From a bacterium (GTDB lineage Bacteria; Patescibacteriota; Minisyncoccia; Sungbacterales; HO2-52-23): a stretch of 57,734 nucleotides of DNA. Location of the stretch: NCBI GenBank assembly GCA_030697525.1, contig JAUYPW010000030.1, positions 1 through 57,734 of the forward strand, written 5' to 3'. A program made the translations under genes and the position numbers. Of the stretch, positions 12,911 to 43,172 are shown piece after piece (positions within the stretch are counted from its first letter, which is position 1; the number at the start of each line of letters is the position of its first letter). Below the pieces are notes generated by a model. That model was not told the origin of the DNA, ran no database searches, and saw only the letters and a program-made list of their open reading frames with translations.

Positions 12911-15268
12911 CTACAATACAAAATTAATAAGCTTGTCTGGCACAAATATTACTTTCTTCGGCTTTCCAGTCAGATGGGTTTTCACTGATTCTAGTGAAGC
13001 AGCCTTAGCTTTTGCCTCCTCTTCACTAATGCCTTTGGCGGCGGACACACGCCCTCGGAATTTGCCATTTATCTGCACTATCAGCTCAAAAGTATCTTCT
13101 TCAAGCATGGCTGGATCAAACTCCGGCCATTTTTCTTTATGAATAGACTTTTTATTTTTTAAAACGCCACACCATATTTCTTCTGTTATGTGCGGCGCAA
13201 AAGGGGCCAGAAGTTTTAAGAAAACTTCCCAGTCTTCTTTGGCAACCGTCTCCTCCTCAAATTTATTCAACAGAATCATCAAAGCCGAAATAGCTGTGTT
13301 GTATTGGAGATTTTCAATATCGTTCGTAACTTTTTTTATGGTTTTATGAATGAGTTGTTCAACCTCTCCTCTGTCATTCTGAGCAGAGCGAAGAATCCCT
13401 GCCTTGCCGGCAGGCAGGTCATGAGATCCTTCGGGCTTCACCCTCAGGATGACACGTGGTGTCAGTTTCCAGACTCTTTCCAAGAATCTGGTGATTCCTT
13501 TAATTCCCGTATCACTAAAATCCCCCCCTTGTTCAAAGGGTCCTAAAAATAACAGGTACATTCGCAAGGCGTCCGCGCCGTATGCTCTTATATATTCATC
13601 CGGATTTACCACATTCCCACGAGATTTGGACATTTTTGCCCCGTCTTTTATAAGAAGTCCGTGCGCCCTGAACTTTTTAAAAGGCTCTTCAAAATGCACC
13701 AGCTCCCAATCTTTGAAAGCCATAGCCAAAAATCGTACATAAAGAAGGTGCAAAACAGCATGTTCAGCTCCACCAATATACATGTCCACGGGTAGCCATT
13801 TTTTTATTCTAATCTCGTCAAAGGGTTTGCTAAGACCTAAATATCCGAGATAGTACCATGCTGAATCAAGAAAGGTATCCGAGACATCCGTTTCGCGTCG
13901 CGCCCATTCGTTGCATTTCGGGCATCGGACTTTATAAAATTTCTCATCTGTGGCCAGTGGCGACTTGTCCGTGCCCGTAGGCTTGAAATCTTTTATATAT
14001 GGAAGCTTAACCGGTAAATCTTTTTCTGGGACAGGTTGCCATTGGCATTTTTCACAAAAAATCATTGGAATAGGAGGTCCCCAGTAGCGCTGACGGGAAA
14101 TGAGCCAGTCGCGAAGACGAAATTGAATTTTTTTTATGCCCCCGCTCTTTTTTATTCCTTCATCAATTGAGACCAGAGGCGCGTTACTCACCGGCAATTT
14201 AAATTTCTTTGCAAACTCAAAATCCCGCTCGTCATGCGCCGGCACAGCCATGATTGCTCCGGTTCCATAACCCGCCAAAACATAGTCCGAAATCCAAACC
14301 GGAATTTTTTCTTTATTGGCTGGGTTGACTGCCGAAAACCCCGAAAATATTCCACTTTTATTTTTTTCAGTTGATTCATTTTGCCTCTCTTCTAATTTTT
14401 GTTTGATATATTTCCTAACTTCATCTGGAGCTTGCCAGCCCGAGACCTGCCAAAACTTCGCTAATTCTGGCGACACTACGACAAAGGTCGTGCCGAAAAT
14501 AGTATCCGGTCGGGTAGTAAAAACTTCAACAAAATGTTTTTTGTCCTCTTGCCCAGGGACATCAATTAGTGAAAAACGAATCGAAGCTCCTTCTGATTTC
14601 CCAATCCAATTCTTTTGCGCGATTTTTATCCTCTCCGACCAGTCTATGTGGTCTAAATTTTTCAGCAGTTTTTCTGCGTAATCCGTAATTTTAAAAAACC
14701 ATTGCTCTAATTCTTTTTTTATCACCACCGAGTCGCATCGCTCGCATGTGCCGGCAACAACCTGTTCGTCCGCAAGCACGGTTTTGCATCCGGGACACCA
14801 ATTCACACTTGCTTTTTTCCGGTATGCCAGACCATTTTTAAACATCTGCACAAAAATCCATTGGGTCCATTTGTAATAATCCGGTTCGTGAGTAGACAGA
14901 ACCTCATCCCAAGCATAGCCAATACCCAGTTCTTTCAGCTGTTTTTCATATCTATCCGTGGTTTTTTTCATTAAATCCAGCGGATGAGTACCTGTTTTGA
15001 GAGCATAATTCTCGCTGTTTATACCAAAAGAGTCATAGCCTATCGGCTGAAAAACATCACAGCCCCGCATCCTTTGGTATCTGCCGTACAAATCCGCTCC
15101 ACTGAAAGTATAGGCGTGCCCAACATGCAGTCCCTCTCCCGAAGGATATGGAAACATCATTAAATTATAGAAGGGGTTTTTGGCCAATTTTAAATCTGGC
15201 TCATAAACTTTCTCCTTGAGCCATTGTTTTTGCCATTTGGGTTCTATTTCAGACGGATTGTAGCGCAT
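12911..15268 (-). CDS. leuS: leucine--tRNA ligase carrying a 27-codon in-frame repeat insertion
   Basis: The HIGH region (GEGLHVGHAY) and KMSKS are present, and the protein is LeuRS-like throughout. Confidence 0.95.
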   Translation of the reverse strand: MRYNPSEIEPKWQKQWLKEKVYEPDLKLAKNPFYNLMMFPYPSGEGLHVGHAYTFSGADLYGRYQRMRGCDVFQPIGYDSFGINSENYALKTGTHPLDLMKKTTDRYEKQLKELGIGYAWDEVLSTHEPDYYKWTQWIFVQMFKNGLAYRKKASVNWCPGCKTVLADEQVVAGTCERCDSVVIKKELEQWFFKITDYAEKLLKNLDHIDWSERIKIAQKNWIGKSEGASIRFSLIDVPGQEDKKHFVEVFTTRPDTIFGTTFVVVSPELAKFWQVSGWQAPDEVRKYIKQKLEERQNESTEKNKSGIFSGFSAVNPANKEKIPVWISDYVLAGYGTGAIMAVPAHDERDFEFAKKFKLPVSNAPLVSIDEGIKKSGGIKKIQFRLRDWLISRQRYWGPPIPMIFCEKCQWQPVPEKDLPVKLPYIKDFKPTGTDKSPLATDEKFYKVRCPKCNEWARRETDVSDTFLDSAWYYLGYLGLSKPFDEIRIKKWLPVDMYIGGAEHAVLHLLYVRFLAMAFKDWELVHFEEPFKKFRAHGLLIKDGAKMSKSRGNVVNPDEYIRAYGADALRMYLLFLGPFEQGGDFSDTGIKGITRFLERVWKLTPRVILRVKPEGSHDLPAGKAGILRSAQNDRGEVEQLIHKTIKKVTNDIENLQYNTAISALMILLNKFEEETVAKEDWEVFLKLLAPFAPHITEEIWCGVLKNKKSIHKEKWPEFDPAMLEEDTFELIVQINGKFRGRVSAAKGISEEEAKAKAASLESVKTHLTGKPKKVIFVPDKLINFVL
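13373..13453. repeat. 81-nt palindromic GTCAT-type element translated in frame inside leuS
   Basis: Arms are GTCATTCTGAGCAGAGCGAAGAATCCC and the reverse complement of GTCATCCTGAGGGTGAAGCCCGAAGGATCTC. They flank a CCTGCC..GGCAGG mini-hairpin. The element starts and ends exactly on codon boundaries and encodes VILRVKPEGSHDLPAGKAGILRSAQND. Confidence 0.75.
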
Positions 15269-15345: not shown

Positions 15346-16179
15346 TTATATCCCCAGAATTTCTCTGGTGTTTTTTACCGTTTGCTCGCTTATTTCTTCT
15401 AAGCTTGCGTCCTTTAATCCCGCTAATTTTTTAGCTACTTCTACTACATACAAAGGCTCGTTTCTTTTGCCTCGGTAAGGAGCGGGGGTTACATAAGGCG
15501 CATCGGTTTCCAGTAAAATTCTTTCACGAGGTATTAGTTTTATGATCTCGTCGTAGTCCCGCGAAAAAGTTATAACCCCACCGAAAGTAAAAGAAAAACC
15601 CATATCCAACAGTGTGGCCGCCTCTTTAAGATTGCCGCTGAAAAAATGTATTATTCCGGGCTTTCCCGAATTACCCTGATTAAAATACATCCCCAACACC
15701 CTGATCAAATCTCCAAAGCCCTGCCGGCAGTGGATCATTAACGGTTTTTTTACATCAAGTGAAAGTTCTATTTGTTTTATAAAAGCCGCTTCCTGTTTTT
15801 TCTTAGAGTCTGTCTGGAGTCGGTAATAATCAAATCCGCACTCTCCAATCGCCACAACCTTCGAATGCTTGGCCAATTTCTTGTATAGCTCGTAATCAAA
15901 TTCTTCTCCTCGCGAGGTAAAACCATTGTCTCCGCCCAGCTCCTGCTCATCATGAAATGATTTGTCTGTATGAATCGGATGAAGACCTACTGTGGCATAT
16001 ACCCCCTCCGGATATTTCTCGGCCAGCTTAATCGCGCTTTCAGAAGTATCCTGTTGCGTTCCGACATTCGCCATCCAAACACCTGCGTCCAAAGCCCTTT
16101 TAATAACAAAGTCGGCATCTTCTTCAAATGCCGCAAATTGCACATGAGTATGGGCATCGATTAACTTTGGCTCCATCAT
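15346..16179 (-). CDS. tatD: TatD-family metal-dependent hydrolase (DNase)
   Basis: LIDAHTHVQF at the N-terminus plus conserved His/Glu/Asp positions (ECGFDY, HCR, ETDAPY). Confidence 0.85.
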   Translation of the reverse strand: MMEPKLIDAHTHVQFAAFEEDADFVIKRALDAGVWMANVGTQQDTSESAIKLAEKYPEGVYATVGLHPIHTDKSFHDEQELGGDNGFTSRGEEFDYELYKKLAKHSKVVAIGECGFDYYRLQTDSKKKQEAAFIKQIELSLDVKKPLMIHCRQGFGDLIRVLGMYFNQGNSGKPGIIHFFSGNLKEAATLLDMGFSFTFGGVITFSRDYDEIIKLIPRERILLETDAPYVTPAPYRGKRNEPLYVVEVAKKLAGLKDASLEEISEQTVKNTREILGI

Positions 16180-17675
16180 AATCTTGAAAATAAATGCTCC
16201 CCTTTCTTTAAGATGACCTTAGAATCCACGAAATTTATTTGGCGTTTTATCTTGCCGGAGGTTTCGGGCAGAAAAGGTTCAAGAAGGTTGGCAACAGCGC
16301 CAGCCAAGTAACTGGCGTTGATCAACACTTTTTTTAATTCTATTGAATCGGTCAGACTCCATGGTTTTTTATCATTTATATATTTGTCGGCAAAAGAAAC
16401 CAGTTCCCAAATTTTGCCCGATGCTTCATGCAGACGAATCTCCTGCATGTTCTTTTCATAATCTTCAAATATCCGACCAATCCCATTTTTGGTGGCCAAT
16501 TCTATATCGTTGGCAAAATTGAAATCGATCGGACCCAGCTTCTCACCCAAGGCCGTGATTCTAGCCACTAAATTACCCAGTCCATTAGCAAGATCTCCAT
16601 TGTGTCTTTCCTCAAATTTTTTATAGCTGAAATCTCCGTCCTCTCCACTGGGAATTTCGCGCAAAAGATAATGCCGAACCGAATCAGCTCCGTATTTATT
16701 AACAAGATCCACCGGGTCTATGACGTTCCCAATTGTTTTAGACATCTTCTGTCCTTCAACGGTTATAAAACCATGCACAAAGATAGATTTAGGGAGGAGC
16801 AGTCCGGCGGACAAAAGCATCCCCGGCCATATGGCGGCATGGAAACGCAAGATATCTTTGCCAATCACGTGCAGATCAGCAGGCCACCAGTGCTTATAAT
16901 TTATCATGGATAGTTGATCGTCCTGCCCATAGCCGATAGCGCTAAGGTAGTTAGTTAGGGCATCGCACCAGACATACATGGTATGCTCCGGATCATCCGG
17001 CACCGGTACTCCCCAAGACAAATCCTTAGCCGGCCGTGAAAAACTTATATCTTCCAACCCCTCCTTCAGCAAAGCTAAAATTTCATTTTGTCTTGTTTCC
17101 GGAATTATTCTTAATTCTTTGCTCTTAATTTTTGACTCTATTTCCTTGGTATATTTTGACAGCCGGAAAAACCAATTTTCCTCTTCAATCACTTCCGGCT
17201 CTTTTTGATGAATCTCGCACTTACCGTCCACCAGATCTTTTTCCGTAACAAAAGCTTCGTGTCCCACACAGTAAAGACCTCTATAATTTTTTTTGTATAA
17301 ATCTCCTGTTTCTTTCAGTTCCCGCCAAAGCTTCTGGGCGCTGGGCCAGTGCCGCACCTTATCCGAAGTCCTAATAAAATCATTCCAACTCAAGTTAAAA
17401 ATATTTTTTAAATTACGAAAATTTGCCGAAGACTCGTCGGCAAATTCGCTTGGTGTTTTTCCGGCCTGCTCAGCCGCCCGCACATTTTTAGCTCCGTGCT
17501 CATCGGTGCCGGTCAAAAACAAAACTTCATCGCCTTTCAGGCGATGATAACGAGCCAGGGCGTCCGCTTGCACTTTCTCCAAGACATGCCCAATGTGGGG
17601 CTTGCCGTTTATATAATCGATAGCGGTTGTAATATAGAATTTGTTGCTTTTTTCTGAATTTGCCATTATACTCAA
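16176..17675 (-). CDS. metG: methionine--tRNA ligase (short form)
   Basis: The HIGH region (GKPHIGHVLE) and KMSKTIGNV are present. Overlaps tatD by 4 nt. Confidence 0.95.
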   Translation of the reverse strand: MSIMANSEKSNKFYITTAIDYINGKPHIGHVLEKVQADALARYHRLKGDEVLFLTGTDEHGAKNVRAAEQAGKTPSEFADESSANFRNLKNIFNLSWNDFIRTSDKVRHWPSAQKLWRELKETGDLYKKNYRGLYCVGHEAFVTEKDLVDGKCEIHQKEPEVIEEENWFFRLSKYTKEIESKIKSKELRIIPETRQNEILALLKEGLEDISFSRPAKDLSWGVPVPDDPEHTMYVWCDALTNYLSAIGYGQDDQLSMINYKHWWPADLHVIGKDILRFHAAIWPGMLLSAGLLLPKSIFVHGFITVEGQKMSKTIGNVIDPVDLVNKYGADSVRHYLLREIPSGEDGDFSYKKFEERHNGDLANGLGNLVARITALGEKLGPIDFNFANDIELATKNGIGRIFEDYEKNMQEIRLHEASGKIWELVSFADKYINDKKPWSLTDSIELKKVLINASYLAGAVANLLEPFLPETSGKIKRQINFVDSKVILKKGEHLFSRL

Positions 17676-20629: not shown

Positions 20630-21925
20630 TTATAATAATCTATCTACAAAATATGTTTCTAAGTCTTTGGCCGAAACCCTTTCTTGTTCAGCAGTATCTC
20701 TATCTCTCACCGTAACAGTATCATCTTCCAAAGTTTGATAGTCCACAGTCACGCACCATGGCGTGCCGATTTCATCTTGAGCGTAGTAGCGCTTGCCAAT
20801 GTTGCCCCTATCATCAAAAACAGGGTTCAGGTTATGACCACCAGCTTTTAGAGATAAGAAAATTTCTCGGGCTTTTTCAACCAATTGCGGCTTATTGGCT
20901 ACCAGAGGAAAGACAGCTACCTTATAAGGAGCAAGTTTTGGTTTTAATTTCAAAACCGTTCTGTCGCCATCTTCATGATAAGCGCTTAAAAGAACCGCGA
21001 GCATGGTGCGCTCAAGTCCAAAAGAAGGCTCAATCACATGTGGAGTGATTTTTTCTTTCGTTTCCTCGTCGTGGTAAGTCAGCTCCTGCCCCGAAAATTT
21101 ACTGTGCTGCGATAGGTCAAAATCTTGGCGATAGGCAAGCCCCCAGAGTTCTTCCCGTCCGAAGGGGTAATCAAAATCAATATCTACGGTGCGACCAGAA
21201 TAATGAGCTCTTTCTTCTTCCGGAACTTCTCTGTCAGATACTCCAGAAATACCAAGATCTTCTGCCCAAGCACGCATCTCTTTGTGCCACATCTCAAAAT
21301 ATTTTTTCCAATCTTGCTCGCGAACAAAATATTCTACCTCCATCTGCTCAAACTCACGCGTGCGAAAGATAAAATTGCCCGGAGTAATTTCGTTGCGGAA
21401 AGCCCGTCCAACTTGAGCCAGCCCGAAAGGCAATTTGGGCCGCATGGTATCCAAAACATTTTTAAAATTTACGAACATTCCCTGCGCAGTTTCCGGACGT
21501 AGATAAACTTCTGTTGACGAATCCTCTACCGGACCTGCATGAGTTTTAAACATCATATTGAAAGATCGCGCTTCGGTAAAATCATGAGCCCCGCAATTTG
21601 AGCAGCCATTTTTTACATCAATTTTATCAGCCCGAAAACGGCTTTTGCATTTCTTGCAATCCACCATAGGATCCACAAAAAAATTGATGTGTCCCGATGC
21701 CTCCCAAATCTTGCTATTCATAAGTATAGAAGATTTAACCCCGTACATGTCTTCACGGCTACTAACAAACCTTCGCAACCATTCTCTTTTTATATTATCC
21801 ACAAGGCCAATACCCATAGGCCCCAAATCCCAAGTACCGGCAAGTCCCCCGTAAATTTCCGATCCGGGAAATACAAAACCCCGACGCTTGCAGAGAGATA
21901 CAATTTTTTCCATTAGGTTATTCAT
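20630..21925 (-). CDS. glyQS: glycine--tRNA ligase (class II, homodimeric type)
   Basis: N-terminus KRRGFVFPGSEIYGGLAGTWDLGPMG, the class II motifs and the anticodon-binding C-terminus. Confidence 0.95.
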   Translation of the reverse strand: MNNLMEKIVSLCKRRGFVFPGSEIYGGLAGTWDLGPMGIGLVDNIKREWLRRFVSSREDMYGVKSSILMNSKIWEASGHINFFVDPMVDCKKCKSRFRADKIDVKNGCSNCGAHDFTEARSFNMMFKTHAGPVEDSSTEVYLRPETAQGMFVNFKNVLDTMRPKLPFGLAQVGRAFRNEITPGNFIFRTREFEQMEVEYFVREQDWKKYFEMWHKEMRAWAEDLGISGVSDREVPEEERAHYSGRTVDIDFDYPFGREELWGLAYRQDFDLSQHSKFSGQELTYHDEETKEKITPHVIEPSFGLERTMLAVLLSAYHEDGDRTVLKLKPKLAPYKVAVFPLVANKPQLVEKAREIFLSLKAGGHNLNPVFDDRGNIGKRYYAQDEIGTPWCVTVDYQTLEDDTVTVRDRDTAEQERVSAKDLETYFVDRLL

Positions 21926-24587: not shown

Positions 24588-26426
24588 TTAAACTACCTCC
24601 TGTTGGTAACACTCTTCACAGTATACAATTTCCTGTCTTTCGGGTGCATAGCTTGTTTCAAACTCATTGGGGCAATGCTGGTCTTGGTGGAAGTGGTTGG
24701 TTTGGTTTTGGTAGATACCGTTGTCGCTTTTGGTTCCAGAACACTGGCACTTTCTTTGCCAGAGTTTGAGAGGGTTTCTTTGTTTGAGTCTTTGGTAATG
24801 TCGACAGTTGGGACAGAGACGGGGAAGGGCTATATTATTTTTTCGATAAAATTCCAGTTCTTGGGGGATGATGCGGAAGGCGGTGGTGCACTGCTCATTA
24901 CATGTAACGACTTGCGATGTCGTTACATGGGCGCATTGGATGATGTCGTTGAGAATGCCGTCTTTTACATCTTTGATGTGGTCTGGAAGTTGGTCTGGGG
25001 TTTTGGTAATTTGGTAATTCTTGGTTTCTGGTTCTTTCCATCTATAACCTTGCTGTTCTGCTTGTTCTTTGGTCAGAGGAAAGTATTCTTGGGCTATGGT
25101 TTCGTTGTAGGCGAAGGGGGAGCGTTCAGGAGGGAAGAATTCTCCGTATCTATATATTCTTCCTTTACTGTCGGTGTAAGGCATCTGGTTCATGTGGTCT
25201 ATGATCTGGGGGACTAGTTTTTCGTACTCTTCTTTGGAGTATTGTTTGTTGAGGATGCAATAAGATTTGTTGCGAAGACCAACGCAGGCAAACAAATCAT
25301 GACAATTGTGGCAATTATAAGAATATTGAATATTGTAACCGGTCCAGATTTTTTTGGAAAAAAATACGGAACTACCGGTTATGACGCTTGCGCTCTGATA
25401 GGCAAAAGAAAAACCATGCCCCACACCAAAAGACGAATGACTATCTTTTATAGCCTCGTCTTTTCCAAAAGGAACCGCCACGTAGCGACAGTCTTCAAAA
25501 GCTCCCATCGTAGAGTCAAAACAATAAAAAGCATTTTTGGCATTCTTAAGATTGTCTCCGGTGGAATTTACCGAATTTGTTATTCTGGCGTATTTGTGGG
25601 GGTACTTTAGCTTAAATTCTTGAAAATCTTTTTTAATTTTTGACAGTTCTGCAAAACTGCCAAGATTATATTCCTTTATCTTGCTGAAATATTCTTCTTT
25701 AGAATATGGTTTGTTGAAAATGTGATACTGCTTGTTCCTCAACCCCACACACCCAAAACAATAGGAACACCCCCTACAATCCCATAAAAACGCTGATTCG
25801 GAACATTCTTCCGAAAAACCGCTGAAAAAAAGTTTGTAAAAATCGTTGCATAAAACATTTTCATAACCCAGTTCTCCATGATGCGACCACAGTATGTCCA
25901 GACAGTCTCGAATTTCATCCAGCCAAGACGAATAATACGTATTTTCAATACGGCTCGCCGCAAAAACTAAATAGCAATTTTTGGCACCAAGAACCGAATT
26001 GCAATATTCGCTATTTATAGAGTTGGTCTGAATAACATTGGGCTGGGGAACGCTTGCCAATAGTTTCCCGAATTGTTGTAAAAACGGTTCAGAAAAATTG
26101 TATTCTCGTCCATATTGCAAAGAATCCCAATTATCCGACCACCAGAATTTATAGTCATAAACACTGTTTATTTCTGAATCCGGCGGAAAAATAGAAATAA
26201 TTTCTTCCTCATGACCTGGTGCATTGCATTTTCTTTTGTACAGAGACCTTTCGTTTCGCCACAAGAACAATAACTGCCATATACACTCCGGACACCAAGT
26301 CGAAGCCGGCACTTTTATTTTTTCGTAGAATAAAAAATCTTCGGGTTCAATCGTGAACTCATTTTTACAGTTTTGGCATTGTTTGGCTTCAGATTTCATT
26401 CTAAATTCTATTTGATTCCTATCCAA
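24588..26426 (-). CDS. Cys-rich hypothetical protein with terminal zinc-ribbon modules and an internally duplicated core
   Basis: N- and C-terminal CxxC...FY.K...P...CP.C...R modules. The central block C..CFGCVGLRNKQYHIFNKPYSKEEY is repeated as CHDLFACVGLRNKSYCILNKQYSKEEY. The alternative start at 26399 would avoid the overlap with ileS. Confidence 0.65.
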   Translation of the reverse strand: MDRNQIEFRMKSEAKQCQNCKNEFTIEPEDFLFYEKIKVPASTWCPECIWQLLFLWRNERSLYKRKCNAPGHEEEIISIFPPDSEINSVYDYKFWWSDNWDSLQYGREYNFSEPFLQQFGKLLASVPQPNVIQTNSINSEYCNSVLGAKNCYLVFAASRIENTYYSSWLDEIRDCLDILWSHHGELGYENVLCNDFYKLFFSGFSEECSESAFLWDCRGCSYCFGCVGLRNKQYHIFNKPYSKEEYFSKIKEYNLGSFAELSKIKKDFQEFKLKYPHKYARITNSVNSTGDNLKNAKNAFYCFDSTMGAFEDCRYVAVPFGKDEAIKDSHSSFGVGHGFSFAYQSASVITGSSVFFSKKIWTGYNIQYSYNCHNCHDLFACVGLRNKSYCILNKQYSKEEYEKLVPQIIDHMNQMPYTDSKGRIYRYGEFFPPERSPFAYNETIAQEYFPLTKEQAEQQGYRWKEPETKNYQITKTPDQLPDHIKDVKDGILNDIIQCAHVTTSQVVTCNEQCTTAFRIIPQELEFYRKNNIALPRLCPNCRHYQRLKQRNPLKLWQRKCQCSGTKSDNGIYQNQTNHFHQDQHCPNEFETSYAPERQEIVYCEECYQQEVV

Positions 26427-29400
26427 AGTTTTTTGCCGTCAAAATCGGCTTCTTTTTCGGCTTTAAATTCCTTTTTGCCCCCGATTTTTATTTCTTCTGC
26501 GTGTATGCCTTTTAAAATATCCTTACTGTGTCTGGAAATTATATTTTCTATCTCCTCATCGCCGGATATCTGGCAGACAATTACATCTTGCGGTTTTAAT
26601 CCCAAATCCTTTCTTAGGCCCTGTACATTACGAACAAACTCCCGCACCAGACCTTCGTCTTTCAATTCTGCGGTAAGTGTGGTATCTAATTTTATTTCCG
26701 ATCCAAAAATTATTTCTTTCACATTTACTTCATCTTTAATCAGCCCCAACAACTCTAGCTTTTCTTGTAACTTGTAACTTGCAACTTGTAACTTGCTCAA
26801 TGGTTGCCTAACCTTTATCCCCGCCTCTGCCCGCAGACGCAAAGCCTCCGACACTATGTTTCTGACCTCGGCCATATCTTCCTCAATTTTTTTGTCTATA
26901 AATTTTTTATTAACCTCCGGCCAATCTTCCAGATGTACGGATTCTTTGGCTCCGCTTATTTCCTTATAAACAATCTCTGCCAGAAACGGAGTAACCGGCG
27001 CAATCAATCGCGAGAATTCAAACAAAACGTAACGCAGAGTAAGCAGGGCATCTTCCCCGTCCGGTGTGTAGGTTTTAATCCTTTCTCGACTCCTTCTCAC
27101 ATACCAAAGAGACAAATCCTGCACAAAATCAAGCATGGGTCTTGTGGCTTTTACTATTTCATAATTATCCAGATTTTCAGTCACTTCTTTTATGGTGCTA
27201 TGAAGTCGGGAGAAAACCCATTTATCTAAGACATGGGAAAAGTTTTTAGGTTTTTGGTCGTGGTTTTTAGGAAGTTTGTATTCATATAGTTTATAAAATC
27301 CCAAAACATTATATAAAATAAGAGAAAATTTTTTATAAACCTCATCCACTTCTTTTTCAGAGAAGTTAATGTTCTCGGCAAGCATCACGGAAGAGGACAT
27401 TAAATAATAGCGCATGGCATCCACTCCGTATTTGTCAAAAAGCAGCCACGGATCGGGAAAATTTTTCTTAGACTTTGATAATTTTTCACCTTTTTCGGAA
27501 AGAATTGTTCCGCTCGTAACTTCATGTTTAAAAGCTGGCTTGTTAAAAAGAGCCGTGGACAGAACGTGAAGGGTATAAAACCAACCGCGGGTTTGCGCTA
27601 TGTATTCGGAAATAAAATCTGCCGGGAAATTTTCCTCAAAAACTTTTTTATTTTCAAACGGGTAGTGTTTTTCCGCAAAAGGCATTGATCCCGATTCAAA
27701 CCAGCAGTCAAAGACGTCCTTAATTCTCTCCATTTTTTCTCCGCAAGAACAGTCTAAAGATATTTTATCTGAATATGGCCGGTGGAAGTCTACTTCTCCC
27801 GAATCGTTTCTCGGTACAGTGTGATACTCTACCTCAACACATTCGGCGTTATTCAGAGACCAACCCCCAGCTCGAGCCGCTAAAGCTTCTTTATTAGACA
27901 ATCCCTGCATAGCGGAATGAAGCATCCATAAGGGATATTCATGGCTGACGATTAAAATATTTCTGTTTTGATATTTCTTTTCTACTTCTTCAACTACTGC
28001 AAACATGCGAGTACGTAACTCCGTCAAATTTTCTCCTCCAGAAGGTTTAGCAAATACGCGATCTTCGCGACGAGGTATTAGCTTATTGTATTCTTCGATG
28101 GGACCACCATCGAGATTTCCACATGAAATCTCGCTTAGTCTCGGATCAAATATCATTTCGGCTCCCGTGCTCTCTGCCACGATTTCCGCTGTTTGGCGAG
28201 TACGCAAAAACGGAGACGCAATTATTAAATCTACTTTTTTCTTTTTTAATCCAACTAAAGATTTTTCTATCTGTTTTCGTCCATTGAGAGTCAAAGGATG
28301 GATATTTTGATCTTTGCAAGAAAAGATATTTTTAATATTTGATTCTGCTTCCCCGTGTCGCATGAAAATATATCTGTTTTTGGCCTGAACAGCTTTTTTA
28401 TAAAGTTCCTCGCGACCCCCGATGACCTCTATTTTCTTGCAGCCGGAACACTCCCAAATCGGCACGGGCGTGCCCCAAAAACGCGAACGGTTTATGTTCC
28501 AATCTGGCGCATCTTCCAATCCTTTGCCAAAACGGCCGTGTTTTAAATGATCCGGATGCCAGTCAATCTTTTCGTTCAGAGCAAGCATTTGTTTTTTGAG
28601 GGCCGCAACTTTTACAAACCAAGCCGACTGGACTTTGTAAATAAGCGGTGTTGAGCAACGCCAACAAATCGGGTAACGATGAACAATCCTTTGTACTTTA
28701 AGAAGTTCGCCGGTATTTTTCAGATGTTCTATGACAATTCTGCTCGCCTCGCCTGTTTCTTTCCCAAACAAAAAAGAAATTTCGGGGTACTCACGGTTGA
28801 AACGTCCTGAATCGTCCAGTGTTTGCAAGGTGGGTAAATTCTCTTTTTTGCCAAGCAGAAAATCATCCTCCCCAAAAGCGGGGGCGATATGTACCAAACC
28901 AGTTCCCTCGCCTGCATCCACAAAATTGGCACCTACTATTTTGTAAACGCCATGGTTGTCTGTAATTTTAAACAGTGGTTGGTAGCGAGAACCGAGAAGC
29001 TTCTCACCAAGAGTTTTCTCAATCGGCTCGGGAGTATCACCCAATTCATGGGGAGGAGTATTGGCAGACCAGATAAATTCCCCCGAAGCCATTTTAAATT
29101 TTGTATAAGTTATTTCCGGATTTACCGCCACCGCCGCATTACCCGGCAAAGTCCAAGGAGTCGTAGTCCAAATGAGTATGTATTCGTTCTCCTTGTCTTC
29201 CAGTTTTAATTTAACAAAAACAGAGTCGTCTTCCTGATCGCGGTAAGAATTATCCATCGCGATTTCAAAATTAGAAAGAGGGGTTTCGCAACGAGTGCAA
29301 AAAAGAGAGGTACGGGCGTCTTTATAGATCAGGCCCTTTTTATATAATTCGGCAAAAGCCCACCAGACTGATTCCATATAAGTCGCGTCCATAGTCTTGT

Positions 29401-29839
29401 AGGAGTTTTCAAAATCCACGAACCGGCCGATTCGTTTTACTGTTTTACTCCATTCGTTTACATAAGTGAGGACTTTGGAACGCGCAGTCTCATTAAATTC
29501 TTTTATGCCAAATTGCTCAATCTGTTTCCGACCTGAAATTTTTAATTCTTCCTCCACAATGTTTTCAATCGGGAGCCCGTGGCAATCCCAACCCCAGCGG
29601 CGCTCCACCAAATACCCCTTCATCGTCCAGTATCTCCCGACCAAGTCCTTTACTGTGCTTCCCAAGATGTGGCCGTAATGAGGAAGCCCTGTCGCAAACG
29701 GCGGGCCATCATAAAAAACATAGCGCTTGGACTTTCTGCGTTGTTCTACGCTTTTCTCAAAAATTTTATTTCTCTCCCAGAATTCCAGAATTTTTTCTTC
29801 CTGTTCGGGTAAAGAAAGTTTTTTATTCTCCTCTGACAT
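26408..29839 (-). CDS. ileS: isoleucine--tRNA ligase with an inserted histidine-phosphatase domain
   Basis: HIGH region (PHYGHILG), KLSKSKKN (the KMSKS equivalent) and zinc-knuckle Cys pairs are present. The start is set at ATG 29839 (MSEENKK...). An extra roughly 190-aa RHG-phosphatase domain is encoded at about 27818..28381. Confidence 0.9.
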   Translation of the reverse strand: MSEENKKLSLPEQEEKILEFWERNKIFEKSVEQRRKSKRYVFYDGPPFATGLPHYGHILGSTVKDLVGRYWTMKGYLVERRWGWDCHGLPIENIVEEELKISGRKQIEQFGIKEFNETARSKVLTYVNEWSKTVKRIGRFVDFENSYKTMDATYMESVWWAFAELYKKGLIYKDARTSLFCTRCETPLSNFEIAMDNSYRDQEDDSVFVKLKLEDKENEYILIWTTTPWTLPGNAAVAVNPEITYTKFKMASGEFIWSANTPPHELGDTPEPIEKTLGEKLLGSRYQPLFKITDNHGVYKIVGANFVDAGEGTGLVHIAPAFGEDDFLLGKKENLPTLQTLDDSGRFNREYPEISFLFGKETGEASRIVIEHLKNTGELLKVQRIVHRYPICWRCSTPLIYKVQSAWFVKVAALKKQMLALNEKIDWHPDHLKHGRFGKGLEDAPDWNINRSRFWGTPVPIWECSGCKKIEVIGGREELYKKAVQAKNRYIFMRHGEAESNIKNIFSCKDQNIHPLTLNGRKQIEKSLVGLKKKKVDLIIASPFLRTRQTAEIVAESTGAEMIFDPRLSEISCGNLDGGPIEEYNKLIPRREDRVFAKPSGGENLTELRTRMFAVVEEVEKKYQNRNILIVSHEYPLWMLHSAMQGLSNKEALAARAGGWSLNNAECVEVEYHTVPRNDSGEVDFHRPYSDKISLDCSCGEKMERIKDVFDCWFESGSMPFAEKHYPFENKKVFEENFPADFISEYIAQTRGWFYTLHVLSTALFNKPAFKHEVTSGTILSEKGEKLSKSKKNFPDPWLLFDKYGVDAMRYYLMSSSVMLAENINFSEKEVDEVYKKFSLILYNVLGFYKLYEYKLPKNHDQKPKNFSHVLDKWVFSRLHSTIKEVTENLDNYEIVKATRPMLDFVQDLSLWYVRRSRERIKTYTPDGEDALLTLRYVLFEFSRLIAPVTPFLAEIVYKEISGAKESVHLEDWPEVNKKFIDKKIEEDMAEVRNIVSEALRLRAEAGIKVRQPLSKLQVASYKLQEKLELLGLIKDEVNVKEIIFGSEIKLDTTLTAELKDEGLVREFVRNVQGLRKDLGLKPQDVIVCQISGDEEIENIISRHSKDILKGIHAEEIKIGGKKEFKAEKEADFDGKKLWIGIK
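26764..26796. repeat. heptanucleotide tandem repeat CTTGTAA x4.7 inside ileS
   Basis: cttgtaa cttgtaa cttgcaa cttgtaa cttgc, translated on the minus strand as KLQVASYKLQ. Confidence 0.8.
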
Positions 29840-29846
29840 ATTATTT

Positions 29847-29875
29847 ATACTACTGATTTTTGAGCCTAAAATCAA
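29847..29875 (-). promoter_or_regulatory. candidate ileS promoter (TTGATT, 17-nt spacer, TAGTAT) implying a near-leaderless mRNA
   Basis: Read on the minus strand. The -10 element ends 7 nt before the ATG at 29839, and no Shine-Dalgarno sequence is present. Confidence 0.3.
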
Positions 29876-30182: not shown

Positions 30183-30617
30183 TCAAAAAACAGTGTATTC
30201 ACACTTGTACCTATTAAAACCACTGACAAGCACAGCCCCACCTTCTTCCAAACCCCCTTGTCTCTCCATGATTTCTTCCAGTTGTGCCTCGTGAGTAACA
30301 CAGATTATGTAATCTTCCGGATGATTCTCACATAGGCCATTAAACAGAGTAGCAAGTTCCCAAAAACTTCCATGGTTCAGTACCATGTGTGTATGAATAT
30401 CATATCCGGCACCGAGGATTTTTTTAATGAACCGAGTTGTGCTAAGTACCCGTGTCGCTGGTGAAGAATAAATCAATACCCTTTTGTCACCCACTAGCGC
30501 CTTAATCTTTTCAGCCGTAGTTTGTACTGTTTTTATACCTCTCCTTGTTAATTCTCCCAAATGATCAACTTCTCCGTGTCGTACAAATATAAACCGCGGT
30601 GTAGAAGTGTTGGGCAT
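30183..30617 (-). CDS. small histidine-phosphatase superfamily protein (SixA/PGAM-like)
   Basis: RFIFVRHGE, SSPATRVLST and VTHE motifs. GGAGGG lies upstream of the ATG. Confidence 0.7.
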   Translation of the reverse strand: MPNTSTPRFIFVRHGEVDHLGELTRRGIKTVQTTAEKIKALVGDKRVLIYSSPATRVLSTTRFIKKILGAGYDIHTHMVLNHGSFWELATLFNGLCENHPEDYIICVTHEAQLEEIMERQGGLEEGGAVLVSGFNRYKCEYTVF

Positions 30618-30672: not shown

Positions 30673-32298
30673 TCACATCTTCTCTGGTGTGTCAATATTA
30701 AGCAGGTTTAGGGTGTTTTTTAAAACTAGTTTGGTAGCCAAAACCAAGTTTAATCTGGCTTGAGTCAGACTCTCGTCATCGGTAATCACCCGACACTTTT
30801 CATAGAAATTATGAAATATCTTGGCAAGTTCTGTGGCATATCGGGGTAAGCGCTGCACTTGAAAATCTCGAGCGGCATCCTCCACCACCTCCGGAAATTG
30901 AAGTAGTTTTTTTATTAGCCCTAACGCCACTGGTTCTTTTAATAAACTAAAGTTGGTAGCTTGTAGCTTATAGCTTGTAGCTTGTAGCTTATTTAGAATA
31001 CTACAACATCGCGCATACGCGTATTGCGCATAATAAACGGGGTTTTCTTCGGATTGTTTCTTAGCAAGTTCCAGATCAAAATCTATATGTGAATTGGCTG
31101 AATGAAGCAATATGGAAAAATTAAAACTATCCCTGCCAACTTCATCAAGAACCTCCCTCGCAGTCACGAAATTACCGGCTCGCTTGGACATATTTATCAC
31201 CTCCTTACCTCTTTTAATTCGTACATATTGATACAAAACCACCAGAAATTTTTCTGGATCAAATCCAAAAACTTTCGCCAGCGCTTTTAATCTCGGTACA
31301 TGCCCGTGGTGATTACTGCCTAAAATATCTATCACCAAATCACTGCCGGATTCAAATTTTTCACGATGATACGCCGCATCGGAGGCAAAATAAGTCGGCT
31401 GGCCGTTGCTTCGTACCAGAACCGCCTCCTTGTCTTCTAGAAATTCGTCTTGAGGGGCCAACCACAAGGCTCCATCATGTTCCTTGGCCACCCCAAGATT
31501 TTTTAATTTTTCTACTATTTTTTCTGTTTTGCCGGAGGAGAGTAGTTCACTCTCTTTAACCACTTCATTGAACTCTATTCCTAATTTTTGTATTGTACTC
31601 TGATTTTCTTCCCAGATTTTCTCTATACCGAATTTGGTTAGTTTTGGTAAATCTTTTTCCGATAATTTTTCACCAAATTTCTCCAGAACTTTTTTGGCGA
31701 TTTCTTTCGGGTATTCTCCCTGGTACCCGCCTTCCGGAAATTCTGTCTCCTCGCCCAGTTCTTTTTTATACCAATACCAGATCGTCTTTCCCATTTTCTC
31801 CACCTGGGAGCCTGCGTCATTGTGAAAATATTCCCGCAAGACTTCATATCCTGATTTTTCTAAAACCCTGGCAATCGTTTCTCCAAGTGGGCCCCCGCGG
31901 GCATTGCCCACATGAATTGGCCCCGTGGGATTGGCTGAAATATACTCAACCCGTGCTTTTTTATTTTTCCCAATATCTGAATTTCCATAAGAATTTTTCT
32001 TTTCTAAAACTCCGGAGAGCTCTTTATATAGAACTTCGGGAGGTGCAAAAAAATTAATAAAGCCAGGCTGAATAGCTTCTGGTTTGTAGCTTCTGGTTTC
32101 TAGTTTGCTGATAATTTCATTTGCAACCTCCATTGGTTTTTTACCCAAAATTTTAGCCAGAACCAAAGCCGCGTTGGTAGAATAATCTCCGTGCTCTTCA
32201 TTTTCCGGAACCTCAACTGAAAAATTTAATTCAGACTGTTGGCCGAATTTCTCATTTATAACCTCTGTCAGGATTCTTCTTATTTCAGATCTTATCAT
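30673..32298 (-). CDS. argS: arginine--tRNA ligase
   Basis: N-terminal add-1 domain (PGFINFF), HIGH-like ANPTGPIHVGNARG and the C-terminal DALR anticodon-binding domain. Confidence 0.95.
   Translation of the reverse strand: MIRSEIRRILTEVINEKFGQQSELNFSVEVPENEEHGDYSTNAALVLAKILGKKPMEVANEIISKLETRSYKPEAIQPGFINFFAPPEVLYKELSGVLEKKNSYGNSDIGKNKKARVEYISANPTGPIHVGNARGGPLGETIARVLEKSGYEVLREYFHNDAGSQVEKMGKTIWYWYKKELGEETEFPEGGYQGEYPKEIAKKVLEKFGEKLSEKDLPKLTKFGIEKIWEENQSTIQKLGIEFNEVVKESELLSSGKTEKIVEKLKNLGVAKEHDGALWLAPQDEFLEDKEAVLVRSNGQPTYFASDAAYHREKFESGSDLVIDILGSNHHGHVPRLKALAKVFGFDPEKFLVVLYQYVRIKRGKEVINMSKRAGNFVTAREVLDEVGRDSFNFSILLHSANSHIDFDLELAKKQSEENPVYYAQYAYARCCSILNKLQATSYKLQATNFSLLKEPVALGLIKKLLQFPEVVEDAARDFQVQRLPRYATELAKIFHNFYEKCRVITDDESLTQARLNLVLATKLVLKNTLNLLNIDTPEKM
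30953..30992. repeat. heptanucleotide tandem repeat TTGTAGC/TTATAGC x5 inside argS
   Basis: ttggtagc ttgtagc ttatagc ttgtagc ttgtagc ttat, translated as KLQATSYKLQATN. This is the same 7-mer core as the ileS repeat. Confidence 0.8.
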
Positions 32299-32365: not shown

Positions 32366-32815
32366 ATGAGCAAAGACTTAGCCGAAAACCGCAGAGCAAG
32401 GTTTGACTACGAAATCATGGAGACATATGAGGCGGGAATTGAGTTGCTCGGATTTGAAGTCAAAGCCATCAAAACCGGCAGAGGCAATCTAACCGGCTCT
32501 TTTGCAATAGTAAAAAATAACGAAGTTTTTCTGTTAAACGCCAATGTCCCGCCATACCAGCCCAAAAACGCGCCAAAAGACTACGATCCCCAAAGAACCA
32601 GAAAACTTCTTTTGAAAAAATCCGAAGTCAAAGAATTGCTTGGTAAAACTTCCCAATCCGGACTCACGCTGATTCCATTGAAAATATATTTAAAGCGTGG
32701 TATGATAAAGATATTGCTGGGTCTGGCGCGCCACAAAAAGAAGGGTGACAAAAGAGAGACAATAAAAAAGAGAGAGACTCAAAGAGATATAGATCGAGTG
32801 ATGAAAAAATTTTAG
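32366..32815 (+). CDS. smpB: SsrA-binding protein
   Basis: NRRARFDYEI..., GIELLGFEVKAI and a basic C-terminal tail. It lies immediately upstream of the tmRNA. Confidence 0.95.
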   Translation: MSKDLAENRRARFDYEIMETYEAGIELLGFEVKAIKTGRGNLTGSFAIVKNNEVFLLNANVPPYQPKNAPKDYDPQRTRKLLLKKSEVKELLGKTSQSGLTLIPLKIYLKRGMIKILLGLARHKKKGDKRETIKKRETQRDIDRVMKKF

Positions 32816-33199
32816 GGGATGATCGGCTTCGATGGGTTTTTGAAAACAAAGAATCAAGCTGGAGACGCACGGTGTCTCCACAAATCCTCCGTGCAAACCA
32901 ATAAGTGCAAACTTATTCTCTAACTTCAACAGGCAGCCTGCTTTAGCAACTGCCTAATGAAGTTCCCCGGCTTTACGTCGGGGCATCGGCCAGCTTATGC
33001 TCGTTCGGCTGATTACCGGTGTTATACTCCGAGCTACGCCCCGTGCCACAACTTGTTGTGATTCGGGGTTGGCTTCTCTGACTGCTCGATACGAGAAGCG
33101 ACATTATCGGGTAAAATAGTTCCGATTAGTTGGAACAAAGCTTGTATAAATTCTTTGCTGGATTAAATCCAGACGGGGGTTCGATTCCCCCCATCTCCA
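32815..33199 (+). ncRNA. ssrA: tmRNA (SsrA)
   Basis: The 5' end GGGGAUG pairs with the 3' end CAUCUCC, including the G3-U pair, followed by the discriminator A. T-arm GGGGGTTCGATTCCCCC. The tag reading frame at 32907-32954, GCA AAC ... GCC, encodes ANLFSNFNRQPALATA, followed by a TAA stop at 32955-32957. CCA is not encoded. Confidence 0.9.
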
Positions 33200-33296
33200 T
33201 TACCAAGTTTTTTGAGACACGCAAAGGAGAGCAGGATTCGAACTTGCCTTTTTTGGGGCTTGATGCTATATTTTATACCTAAATAAATTTAAAGCC

Positions 33297-33812
33297 ATTC
33301 AAAAGCACTACAAGATAAATCATTATATTCGGGTGTCTCCTGTCAGGGTTATTGGAGAAAAAGGAGAGAATCTCGGTACCCTGGAAACCTCCGAAGCTTT
33401 GAAATTGGCCCAGGAACAGGGCTTGGATCTTATTGAAATAGCTCCGACTGCCAAACCTCCCGTATGCCGTATAATGGATTTCGGCAAGTTCCGTTACGAG
33501 AGAGAGAAAGGAGAAAGAGAGCGCAGCAAGAATCAAAAAGAATCCGAATTGAAAATAATAAAGATAGGATTCACCACGGGGAAACACGATCTAGAACTGC
33601 GAGCCGGACAAGCCAAAAAGTTTCTAGAGAAGGGGGACAAGGTTAAAATAAATATGAATCTAAGAGGACGAGAGAAAGCCCACGGACAGGTAGCCATGCA
33701 GAAATTTAACGAGTTTTTAAAAATGGTTCCGATGGAATATAATCTAGAATCTCCACCCAAAAGATTTCCTCAAGGCATAACAACCGTCATAACCAAGAGT
33801 ACGGTCAAATAA
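33297..33812 (+). CDS. infC: translation initiation factor IF-3, probably with a non-canonical AUU start
   Basis: The track ORF starts at GTG 33333, but the conserved IF-3 N-terminal motif (KINHYIRVSPVRVIG) extends upstream. No ATG, GTG or TTG lies between the upstream in-frame stop and 33333. An in-frame ATT lies at about 33297. Confidence 0.8.
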   Translation: MQKHYKINHYIRVSPVRVIGEKGENLGTLETSEALKLAQEQGLDLIEIAPTAKPPVCRIMDFGKFRYEREKGERERSKNQKESELKIIKIGFTTGKHDLELRAGQAKKFLEKGDKVKINMNLRGREKAHGQVAMQKFNEFLKMVPMEYNLESPPKRFPQGITTVITKSTVK

Positions 33813-43058: not shown

Positions 43059-43172
43059 TGCCCTCGGGCAGATTCGCCCCGTCATTCGACGGGGCGTCCG
43101 GTCGTATGGCCGGACGAACCTCTAGTCTTCGGCTTCGGAGGCCGACGCTCTATCCAATTGAGCTACGGGCGC
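43059..43172 (-). tRNA. tRNA-Arg(CCG)-like gene interrupted in the T-loop by a 40-nt double hairpin; the 3' part pairs poorly (possible pseudogene or chimera)
   Basis: The minus-strand sequence GCGCCCG-TA-GCTC-AATTGGATA-GAGC-G-TCGGC-CTCCGAA-GCCGA-AGACT-AGAGG-TTCG forms a perfect 5' two-thirds with anticodon CCG. Hairpins at 43075..43096 and 43095..43116 follow, and then AATC-TGCC-CGAGGGC-A. Confidence 0.5.

Follow-up and report, generated by a model that had tools for sequence, protein, structure and literature searches.

The stretch of DNA analysed here (the window) covers 57,734 nt of contig JAUYPW010000030.1 (assembly GCA_030697525.1) from a member of the Patescibacteriota (Sungbacterales, HO2-52-23). 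Its minus strand carries ileS, the gene of an isoleucyl-tRNA synthetase (IleRS), inside which a complete histidine-phosphatase domain is nested. The gene and its parts are the following:

26408..29839, minus strand: ileS, type-2 isoleucyl-tRNA synthetase of 1143 aa (TIGR00392, Pfam, AlphaFold).
28391..29839, minus strand: N-terminal part of IleRS with the first Rossmann half, HYGH (29669..29680), CP1 (WTTTPWT, GTGLVHIAP..G..D), WNINRSR and CSGC (28439..28450); located by motifs, with editing and zinc-knuckle residues at least 99% conserved.
27806..28390, minus strand: nested His_Phos_1 domain, residues 496-690 of the open reading frame (ORF) (Pfam, conservation, AlphaFold, Foldseek).
26408..27805, minus strand: C-terminal part of IleRS with CSC (27743..27751), DCWFESGS, KLSKS (27470..27484), the anticodon-binding domain and the type-2 C-terminal domain (Pfam, motifs, alignment to 8C8U).

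The ORF at 26408..29875 (minus strand) starts with a TTG at 29875 and encodes 1155 aa; the start chosen by the gene caller is the ATG at 29839, which gives the 1143-aa product P0121. Residue numbers in this text (e.g. H507) follow the 1155-aa frame. The product reached 847 bits with TIGR00392 (cutoff 621.4), and Pfam detected tRNA-synt_1, Anticodon_1 and the type-2 C-terminal domain DUF5915. HYGH is located at aa 66 and KLSKS at aa 798, the CP1 editing motifs WTTTPWT and GTG.VH.AP..G..D are invariant among homologs, and both halves of the second zinc knuckle (CxxC at aa 476-479, CxC at aa 709-711) are conserved to about 99%. The best match in the PDB was IleRS2 of Priestia megaterium (8C8U; phmmer E-value 3e-217). 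An AlphaFold model of the full-length protein, obtained with 66 homologs, displayed a mean predicted local distance difference test score (pLDDT) of 90.8 and a predicted template modelling score (pTM) of 0.84; its comparison with 8C8V and 8WND (yeast IleRS-tRNA(Ile)) gave target TM-scores of 0.80-0.81. Judged by its sequence, the synthetase is an intact type-2 IleRS: HYGH and KLSKS are in place, as are the CP1 editing site, the two zinc knuckles, the anticodon-binding domain and the C-terminal domain. Orthology and the conserved housekeeping argS-ileS locus suggest that it charges tRNA(Ile) specifically with isoleucine. Two special forms of the enzyme were rejected by score, namely IleRS with a GNAT domain (NF040702, 336 bits, cutoff 1999) and the MupA/MupB resistance IleRS (NF000257/NF000258, 692-699 bits, cutoff 1900).

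Between PIWECSGCKKIEVIGGREELYKKA and VDFHRPYSDKI, an extra segment of about 195 residues (ORF residues ~496-690, 27806..28390) is located in the distal loop of the second zinc knuckle. It matched the Pfam family His_Phos_1 (PF00300) with an E-value of 2.1e-33 and 116 bits (gathering score 21.7) over ORF residues 503-675 (27851..28369), corresponding to profile positions 2-177 of 194. This match divides the Pfam match of the IleRS catalytic domain into two halves. In the alignment with 8C8U, query residues 481 and 681 correspond to chain residues 476 and 484, meaning that about 200 residues stand in place of about 7. The GC content of the insert (0.40) lies inside the range of the flanking parts of the gene (0.39-0.44). 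The initial annotation of this DNA, made from the sequence alone, had described a complete domain of about 190 aa between the same two flanking peptides, at a position where canonical IleRS has a short linker. Both statements hold, and with the coordinates given there (27818..28381) the match to PF00300 has an E-value of 1.4e-34.

The catalytic histidine, the downstream arginine and the second histidine named in that annotation were found again by translation, as part of a catalytic set that comprises R506-H507-G508 (28352..28360), N513, R558, E582 and H645 (27941..27943). An insert-specific SHE-PLW motif follows the second histidine. When the insert was modelled alone, AlphaFold returned a pLDDT of 95.6 and a pTM of 0.92, and in the full-length model neither of the two junctions shows a low-confidence linker. 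Both models predict a domain that folds autonomously and is rigidly joined to the synthetase by very short linkers. Comparison of the insert model using Foldseek gave TM-scores of 0.78-0.80 to 4ij6, 6s2q, 4pz9 and 9mmh. The best folds (TM-score ~0.8) were those of iPSP1, glucosyl-3-phosphoglycerate phosphatase (GpgP), mycobacterial hydrolases, the riboflavin-pathway HFP, PhoE (1h2e) and CobC, and the phosphoglycerate mutases (dPGMs) ranked below these small phosphatases. By sequence, the nearest PDB entry was iPSP1 (4ij5, E-value 1e-14). Pfam, NCBIfam and fold comparison all place the segment firmly in branch 1 of the histidine phosphatases; the domain is a branch-1 histidine phosphatase and it is nested inside IleRS. 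It is predicted to act as a phosphomonoesterase via a phospho-His507 intermediate, with Glu582 as general acid.

Assignment to a known family was attempted with the specific NCBIfam equivalogs. The dPGM models dPGM_arch (NF038349) and pgm_1 (TIGR01258) gave 100.7-104.9 bits against 225 and 21.5 against 81.7, respectively. The SixA model (TIGR00249) reached 30.7-35.7 bits against 74.5, with an alignment limited to the N-terminal ~65 residues. PspA/iPSP1 (NF045917) scored 57-61 bits against 350 and CobC (TIGR03162) 74-79 against 162.9, while the GpmB model scored far under its cutoff. Since all of these equivalogs remain far below cutoff, the insert represents a distinct branch-1 subfamily outside the characterised families. 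PspA/iPSP1 and CobC are its nearest relatives, and on these scores it belongs to neither family.

The search with the full-length protein delivered 120 best-scoring homolog clusters with 44-78% identity, in 119 of which PF00300 was detected. Sungbacteria, Niyogibacteria, Nomurabacteria, Taylorbacteria, Jorgensenbacteria, Kaiserbacteria and Paceibacterota are the named sources, on contigs of up to 0.8 Mb. A species scan, in which one genome per GTDB species was searched with the insert alignment, identified the insert in at least 288 GTDB species of Paceibacteria/Parcubacteria, and in all 80 loci that were fetched the match lies inside an ORF of IleRS length. The insertion is thus distributed clade-wide in Paceibacteria. 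An assembly artefact or chimera was rejected, as the same in-frame architecture is present in NCBI, JGI, ENA and Logan assemblies, on contigs of up to 0.8-1 Mb and with ordinary composition. The artefact could be excluded without read mapping because the junctions recur in these 119 clusters and in the species of the scan, which come from independent assemblies. Among the 120 homologs, R506, H507, R558 and H645 are conserved to 98-99%, E582 to 92% and N513 to 88%. Mean pairwise identity amounts to 41% for the insert, 63-65% for the Rossmann core, 49% for the CP1 editing domain and 36% for the C-terminal domain. The insert is therefore less conserved than the Rossmann core, comparable to CP1 and more conserved than the C-terminal domain, indicating that it is under purifying selection.

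An exhaustive search with the insert only returned 1104 proteins at an E-value below 1e-10. Stand-alone proteins of ~190 aa were present among the matches, which are ~40% identical to the insert and have the full catalytic set. The stand-alone protein matches the nested segment end to end, which is consistent with an entire domain having been inserted, its two termini being near each other. The genomic context was analysed by seven locus look-ups; the informative contexts of stand-alone genes, six in number, are:

P0260 (L081): gap of 4 nt to the preceding argS and of 1 nt to the following insert-less ileS of 931 aa.
P0325 (L089): argS, histidine phosphatase (HP) and ileS in this order; phosphatase and ileS overlap by 11 nt.
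P0262: directly after argS; the gene downstream could not be identified.
P0265 (L084): after argS; ileS is convergent.
P0364 and P0317: other contexts, with IleRS/ArgRS not adjacent.

In L081, the order SmpB-IF3-L20-ArgRS-HP-IleRS-x-RecO-DUF11 corresponds to the gene order of the window. For P0260, P0262, P0265 and P0325, an insert-less ileS is adjacent in three of four contexts, and in two of them the distance is reduced to the 1-nt gap or the 11-nt overlap. In some Paceibacteria, the phosphatase is therefore encoded beside ileS as its operon partner, whereas in others it is nested within IleRS. This is a classic 'Rosetta-stone' relation, and the nested domain is probably an internalised copy of the operon partner. 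A neighbour-joining tree of 152 domain copies was star-like, with stand-alone and nested copies interleaved; the number of fusion events is not resolvable from it and the tree was not used. As a separate observation, IleRS in L084 (2682-5609, minus strand) is encoded by two consecutive ORFs, split just after CP1 and separated by 24 nt; either the synthetase is truly split or the sequence contains an error.

The window itself has a further phosphatase-like ORF upstream of ileS, in front of which argS is located:

30183..30617, minus strand: shortened histidine-phosphatase-like ORF of 144 aa (PF00300, E-value 3.6e-7, 30.5 bits).
30673..32298, minus strand: argS, conserved upstream neighbour of ileS (BLAST, Pfam on orthologs).

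The 144-aa ORF is separated from ileS, located downstream of it, by 307 nt if the TTG is taken as start codon and by 343 nt if the ATG is. It had been put forward as a stand-alone paralog of the nested domain. The match to His_Phos_1 supports this, but the ORF is shortened and lineage-specific and is devoid of the general-acid region. Only its N-terminal half aligns well to His_Phos_1; RHGE, the arginine of SSPxxR and the second histidine, in a THE motif, are retained, and alignment to the hidden Markov model of the insert family showed that ~55 central residues including the general-acid glutamate and the GGE motif are missing. It occupies the argS-ileS slot and is syntenic with the full-length stand-alone genes (~190 aa) in L081 and L089. 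No such ORF was detectable in the argS-ileS gaps of 80 related loci (L001-L080), and in L086, where IleRS is 72% identical, an unrelated ORF of 120 aa is found in the slot. A role as conserved partner of the nested form was rejected on these grounds. We read the 144-aa ORF as a lineage-specific remnant, or possibly a SixA-like minimal derivative, of an ancestral stand-alone gene. In about 45 of 80 related loci, BLAST identified an ArgRS ORF that lies upstream of ileS and shares its strand (the match in L060 is a mapping artefact), and Pfam detected ArgRS domains in the argS orthologs of L081, L086 and L088.

Nested phosphatases are restricted neither to one copy nor to one site. IleRS variants with 2-4 copies of His_Phos_1 were found, with insertions at four or more sites (A-D), i.e. 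before WxISR, in the zinc-knuckle loop, between DxWFxSG and KMSKS, and after KMSKS. Proteins with 2-4 copies, being either IleRS or valyl-tRNA synthetase (ValRS), are P0241, P0251, P0276, P0294, P0320, P0330 and P0345, and the two-copy cluster P0330 occurs on contigs of up to 1.06 Mb. One ValRS with two copies served as starting point for a search of ValRS relatives. In the resulting sample of 120 listed proteins (118 new matches, including P0390-P0503, plus P0336 and P0241), 73 carry 1-4 nested copies, and the named sources are Peregrinibacteria and Gracilibacteria. Most ValRS copies are inserted between WxISRQ and DxWFSS, in a loop that corresponds topologically to the one used in the IleRS of the window. 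Both catalytic histidines and both arginines are kept in all 19 copies that were checked, and the full nine-residue set R-H-G-N-R-E-E-R-H in 13 of them. A degenerate or structural domain is unlikely given this conservation. Regarding annotation, most of these IleRS and ValRS are named only 'class I tRNA ligase family protein' by NCBI, and one fragment is named 'broad specificity phosphatase PhoE' by JGI; the insertion apparently upsets automatic naming.

Five aminoacyl-tRNA synthetase (aaRS) genes are present within the 57 kb of the window, among which only IleRS displays the phosphatase domain:

12911..15268, minus strand: LeuRS.
16176..17675, minus strand: MetRS.
20630..21925, minus strand: class II GlyRS/HisRS-like synthetase.
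26408..29839, minus strand: IleRS.
30673..32298, minus strand: ArgRS.

The multi-copy proteins also bear on a role in protein dephosphorylation. The histidine-phosphatase superfamily includes the protein phosphatases SixA, PGAM5 and Sts-1, many of its members are dimeric, and aaRSs are targets of kinase toxins (HipA on GltX, HipT on TrpS). The domain could thus dephosphorylate the synthetase or a translation factor and thereby counter Ser/Thr/His kinases or HipA-like toxins, or it could serve as a dimerisation or assembly scaffold comparable to the GST-like domains of eukaryotic aaRS complexes. The SixA model, at 31-36 bits against 74.5, does not support a protein phosphatase, the nearest folds are metabolite phosphatases, and dephosphorylation in cis would need no multi-copy arrays. 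A purely structural role is at odds with the near-strict conservation of the catalytic residues in every copy. Both versions are considered very improbable.

The reading that we prefer, with a probability of roughly 0.5, is that of a bifunctional IleRS-phosphomonoesterase, in which the phosphatase partners the function of branched-chain aaRSs. The operon-partner phosphatase would have been internalised as a whole into the zinc-knuckle loop of IleRS, where it would act via phospho-His507 with Glu582 as the acid. Its role would be tied to the branched-chain class Ia synthetases, and its activity would benefit the charging of Ile and Val. The conserved argS-phosphatase-ileS operon of relatives and the parallel insertions in ValRS lend indirect support to a coupling with Ile-tRNA charging. 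Tethering would provide a fixed stoichiometry and proximity. The most probable substrate would be the terminal phosphate of a small nucleotide- or amino-acid-derived phosphoester that otherwise disturbs charging, and the 3' end phosphate of tRNA a less probable one. The small phosphoester is our best estimate because the characterised relatives all act on small molecules.

Several observations weigh against this coupling. The metabolites on which the characterised structural neighbours act are unrelated to translation, and the link with IleRS could therefore consist of co-expression only. Two of the six informative stand-alone contexts adjoin neither IleRS nor ArgRS, and no stand-alone phosphatase was found next to an insert-less valS in the two loci examined. 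In L088, an insert-less ileS of 961 aa (P0149) is abutted by argS, and the phosphatase gene is absent from the locus; this IleRS is 68% identical to that of the window over the best local alignment (41% of the query). A relative with neither insert nor neighbouring phosphatase implies that the module is dispensable or replaceable. Unrelated domains are also nested in class Ia synthetases of the candidate phyla radiation (CPR) or attached to them, as seen among P0407, P0488, P0042 and P0457: ValRS can contain a DUF559/Vsr-like endonuclease, one IleRS fragment continues from its phosphatase straight into a serine-hydrolase (alpha/beta) domain, and one ValRS has an HU-like tail. The loops of these synthetases thus seem to be generally permissive. 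Finally, the isoelectric point (pI) of the domain, with a median of ~7, is not consistently basic and gives no support for RNA binding; a generic charge signature of RNA binding was sought via this value and was not found.

Several of these points would also fit a hitch-hiking housekeeping phosphatase with metabolite or broad activity (phosphoserine, sugar phosphates, nucleotides) and no mechanistic tie to aminoacylation. Such an enzyme would first have resided in the argS-ileS operon and would then have been captured by a permissive IleRS loop, gaining constitutive expression and saving regulatory sequence. In its favour, the nearest relatives in sequence and fold (iPSP1, GpgP, HFP, CobC, PhoE) are all metabolic phosphatases and the stand-alone form works unfused; the lineage that has no module at the locus, the unrelated domains inserted in CPR class Ia synthetases and the neutral charge of the domain are also in line with it. 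Neutral capture is, however, hard to square with independent insertions at four or more sites in IleRS and ValRS and with 2-4 catalytically intact copies per protein. The linkers are short, conserved and modelled with high confidence, which suggests that the domain is held in a fixed geometry and is no loose passenger, and only one of the five aaRS genes of the window, IleRS, has the domain. Hitch-hiking is regarded as possible, though doubtful; a mere passenger would hardly be expected to be captured repeatedly or to form multi-copy arrays.

The tRNA substrate leads to a further explanation, in which the CCA end of tRNA(Ile), or in the ValRS proteins that of tRNA(Val), would be freed on the enzyme of a 3'- or 2'-phosphate or a pyrophosphate. 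A damaged or toxin-modified tRNA, e.g. after toxSAS-type pyrophosphorylation, would thus be made chargeable. The domain is tethered to an enzyme that must bind a free 2'/3'-OH at A76, and IleRS and ValRS have it in the same loop. With its HD domain, the CCA-adding enzyme of E. coli offers a precedent of a phosphatase fused to a tRNA 3'-end enzyme. Pyrophosphorylation of the CCA end by toxSAS toxins is known to block aminoacylation and is selective for tRNA species (PMC11559606; 10.1101/2021.04.30.441581). On the other hand, the variation of sites A-D leaves no single conserved geometry relative to A76, and a basic charge is no consistent feature of the domain. In each lineage a single synthetase has it, although damage of the end would hit all tRNAs. 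We know of no branch-1 histidine phosphatase that acts on RNA ends. Healing of the tRNA end is considered unlikely, and the neutral pI, the variable sites and the module-less lineage weigh against any obligatory, geometry-dependent action on tRNA.

Both components of the bifunctional enzyme that we favour have well-characterised counterparts. With the type-2 IleRS structures (8C8U/8C8V; 1ILE of T. thermophilus) it shares HxGH, KMSKS, CP1 editing, two zinc knuckles and the anticodon-binding and C-terminal domains; these structures display a zinc-knuckle loop of ~7 residues, where the IleRS of the window contains a phosphatase of ~195 residues. We take type 2 to be the eukaryote-like, mupirocin-resistant type of IleRS. 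The small branch-1 phosphatases, i.e. iPSP1/PspA of H. thermophilus (4IJ5/4IJ6), GpgP of M. tuberculosis (Rv2419c, 4PZ9), PhoE of G. stearothermophilus (1H2E) and CobC, have in common with the insert a size of ~200 aa, the fold, the catalytic set and the lack of dPGM-specific elements. The identity to the insert is only 22-26%, however, and the insert has its own SHE-PLW motif; moreover, it is found within an aaRS or in an operon with one, whereas these phosphatases belong to metabolic pathways. The actinobacterial RNase H/acid phosphatase (NF005567, Rv2228c type) was the second-best NCBIfam phosphatase match (E-value 4.6e-23 with the whole protein and 7e-24 with the insert; 82-85 bits, cutoff 326). 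In this protein, a CobC-like domain is likewise joined to a nucleic-acid enzyme, but as an end-to-end fusion with a different partner, unlike the nested insert. The IleRS with a GNAT domain (NF040702) and the GST-like domains of eukaryotic aaRSs are precedents for accessory non-synthetase domains, with another fold and chemistry.

Literature searches, including full text, returned nothing on a histidine phosphatase in IleRS or ValRS, in agreement with the initial annotation, whose author was not aware of an aaRS with such a domain. The AARS Online survey paper (PMC11580382) does not use the word 'phosphatase' in its text, nor in the tables that list aaRS families and domain superfamilies. The combination of the two known components is real, widespread and undescribed in the literature found.

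Some further features of the window were recorded. A cysteine-rich ORF of 612 aa with many CxxC pairs (24588..26426, minus strand) overlaps the 3' end of ileS by 19 nt and has no match in Pfam or NCBIfam. RecO or a short ORF follows ileS in L086 and L081, and the 612-aa ORF therefore looks like a lineage-specific insertion. At 32366..33202 (plus strand), the end of smpB at 32815 coincides with the first base of the tmRNA gene (Rfam, 119 bits), which encodes the tag peptide ANLFSNFNRQPALATA, and IF3 follows at 33333..33812. Rfam calls a tRNA at 43105..43172 (minus strand) with 32.1 bits (gathering score 29), where ARAGORN reports none. An ORF of 869 aa without Pfam match is located at 1914..4523 (minus strand), and an ORF of 987 aa with a Peptidase_S74 (endosialidase/tail-fibre chaperone) domain at 54754..57717 (minus strand), at the edge of the window.

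The aaRSs are among the most conserved enzymes of life, and the accessory catalytic domains of the bacterial ones mostly serve editing. The IleRS described here would provide a clean natural example of an operon neighbour turned nested domain. The best NCBIfam phosphatase match of the insert is a phosphoglycerate-mutase model, which may lead to misreading in metabolic reconstructions of CPR bacteria. If healing of tRNA ends were true, these would be the first aaRSs that heal blocked tRNA ends before charging, and an RNA end would be the first substrate of this kind in the histidine-phosphatase superfamily. In hundreds of species of Patescibacteria, the catalytic body of IleRS contains a second, unrelated catalytic centre with predicted phosphoryl transfer activity. 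Its presence in up to four copies and its independent appearance in ValRS point to selection having linked phosphate-ester chemistry with the charging of branched-chain tRNAs in minimal genomes.

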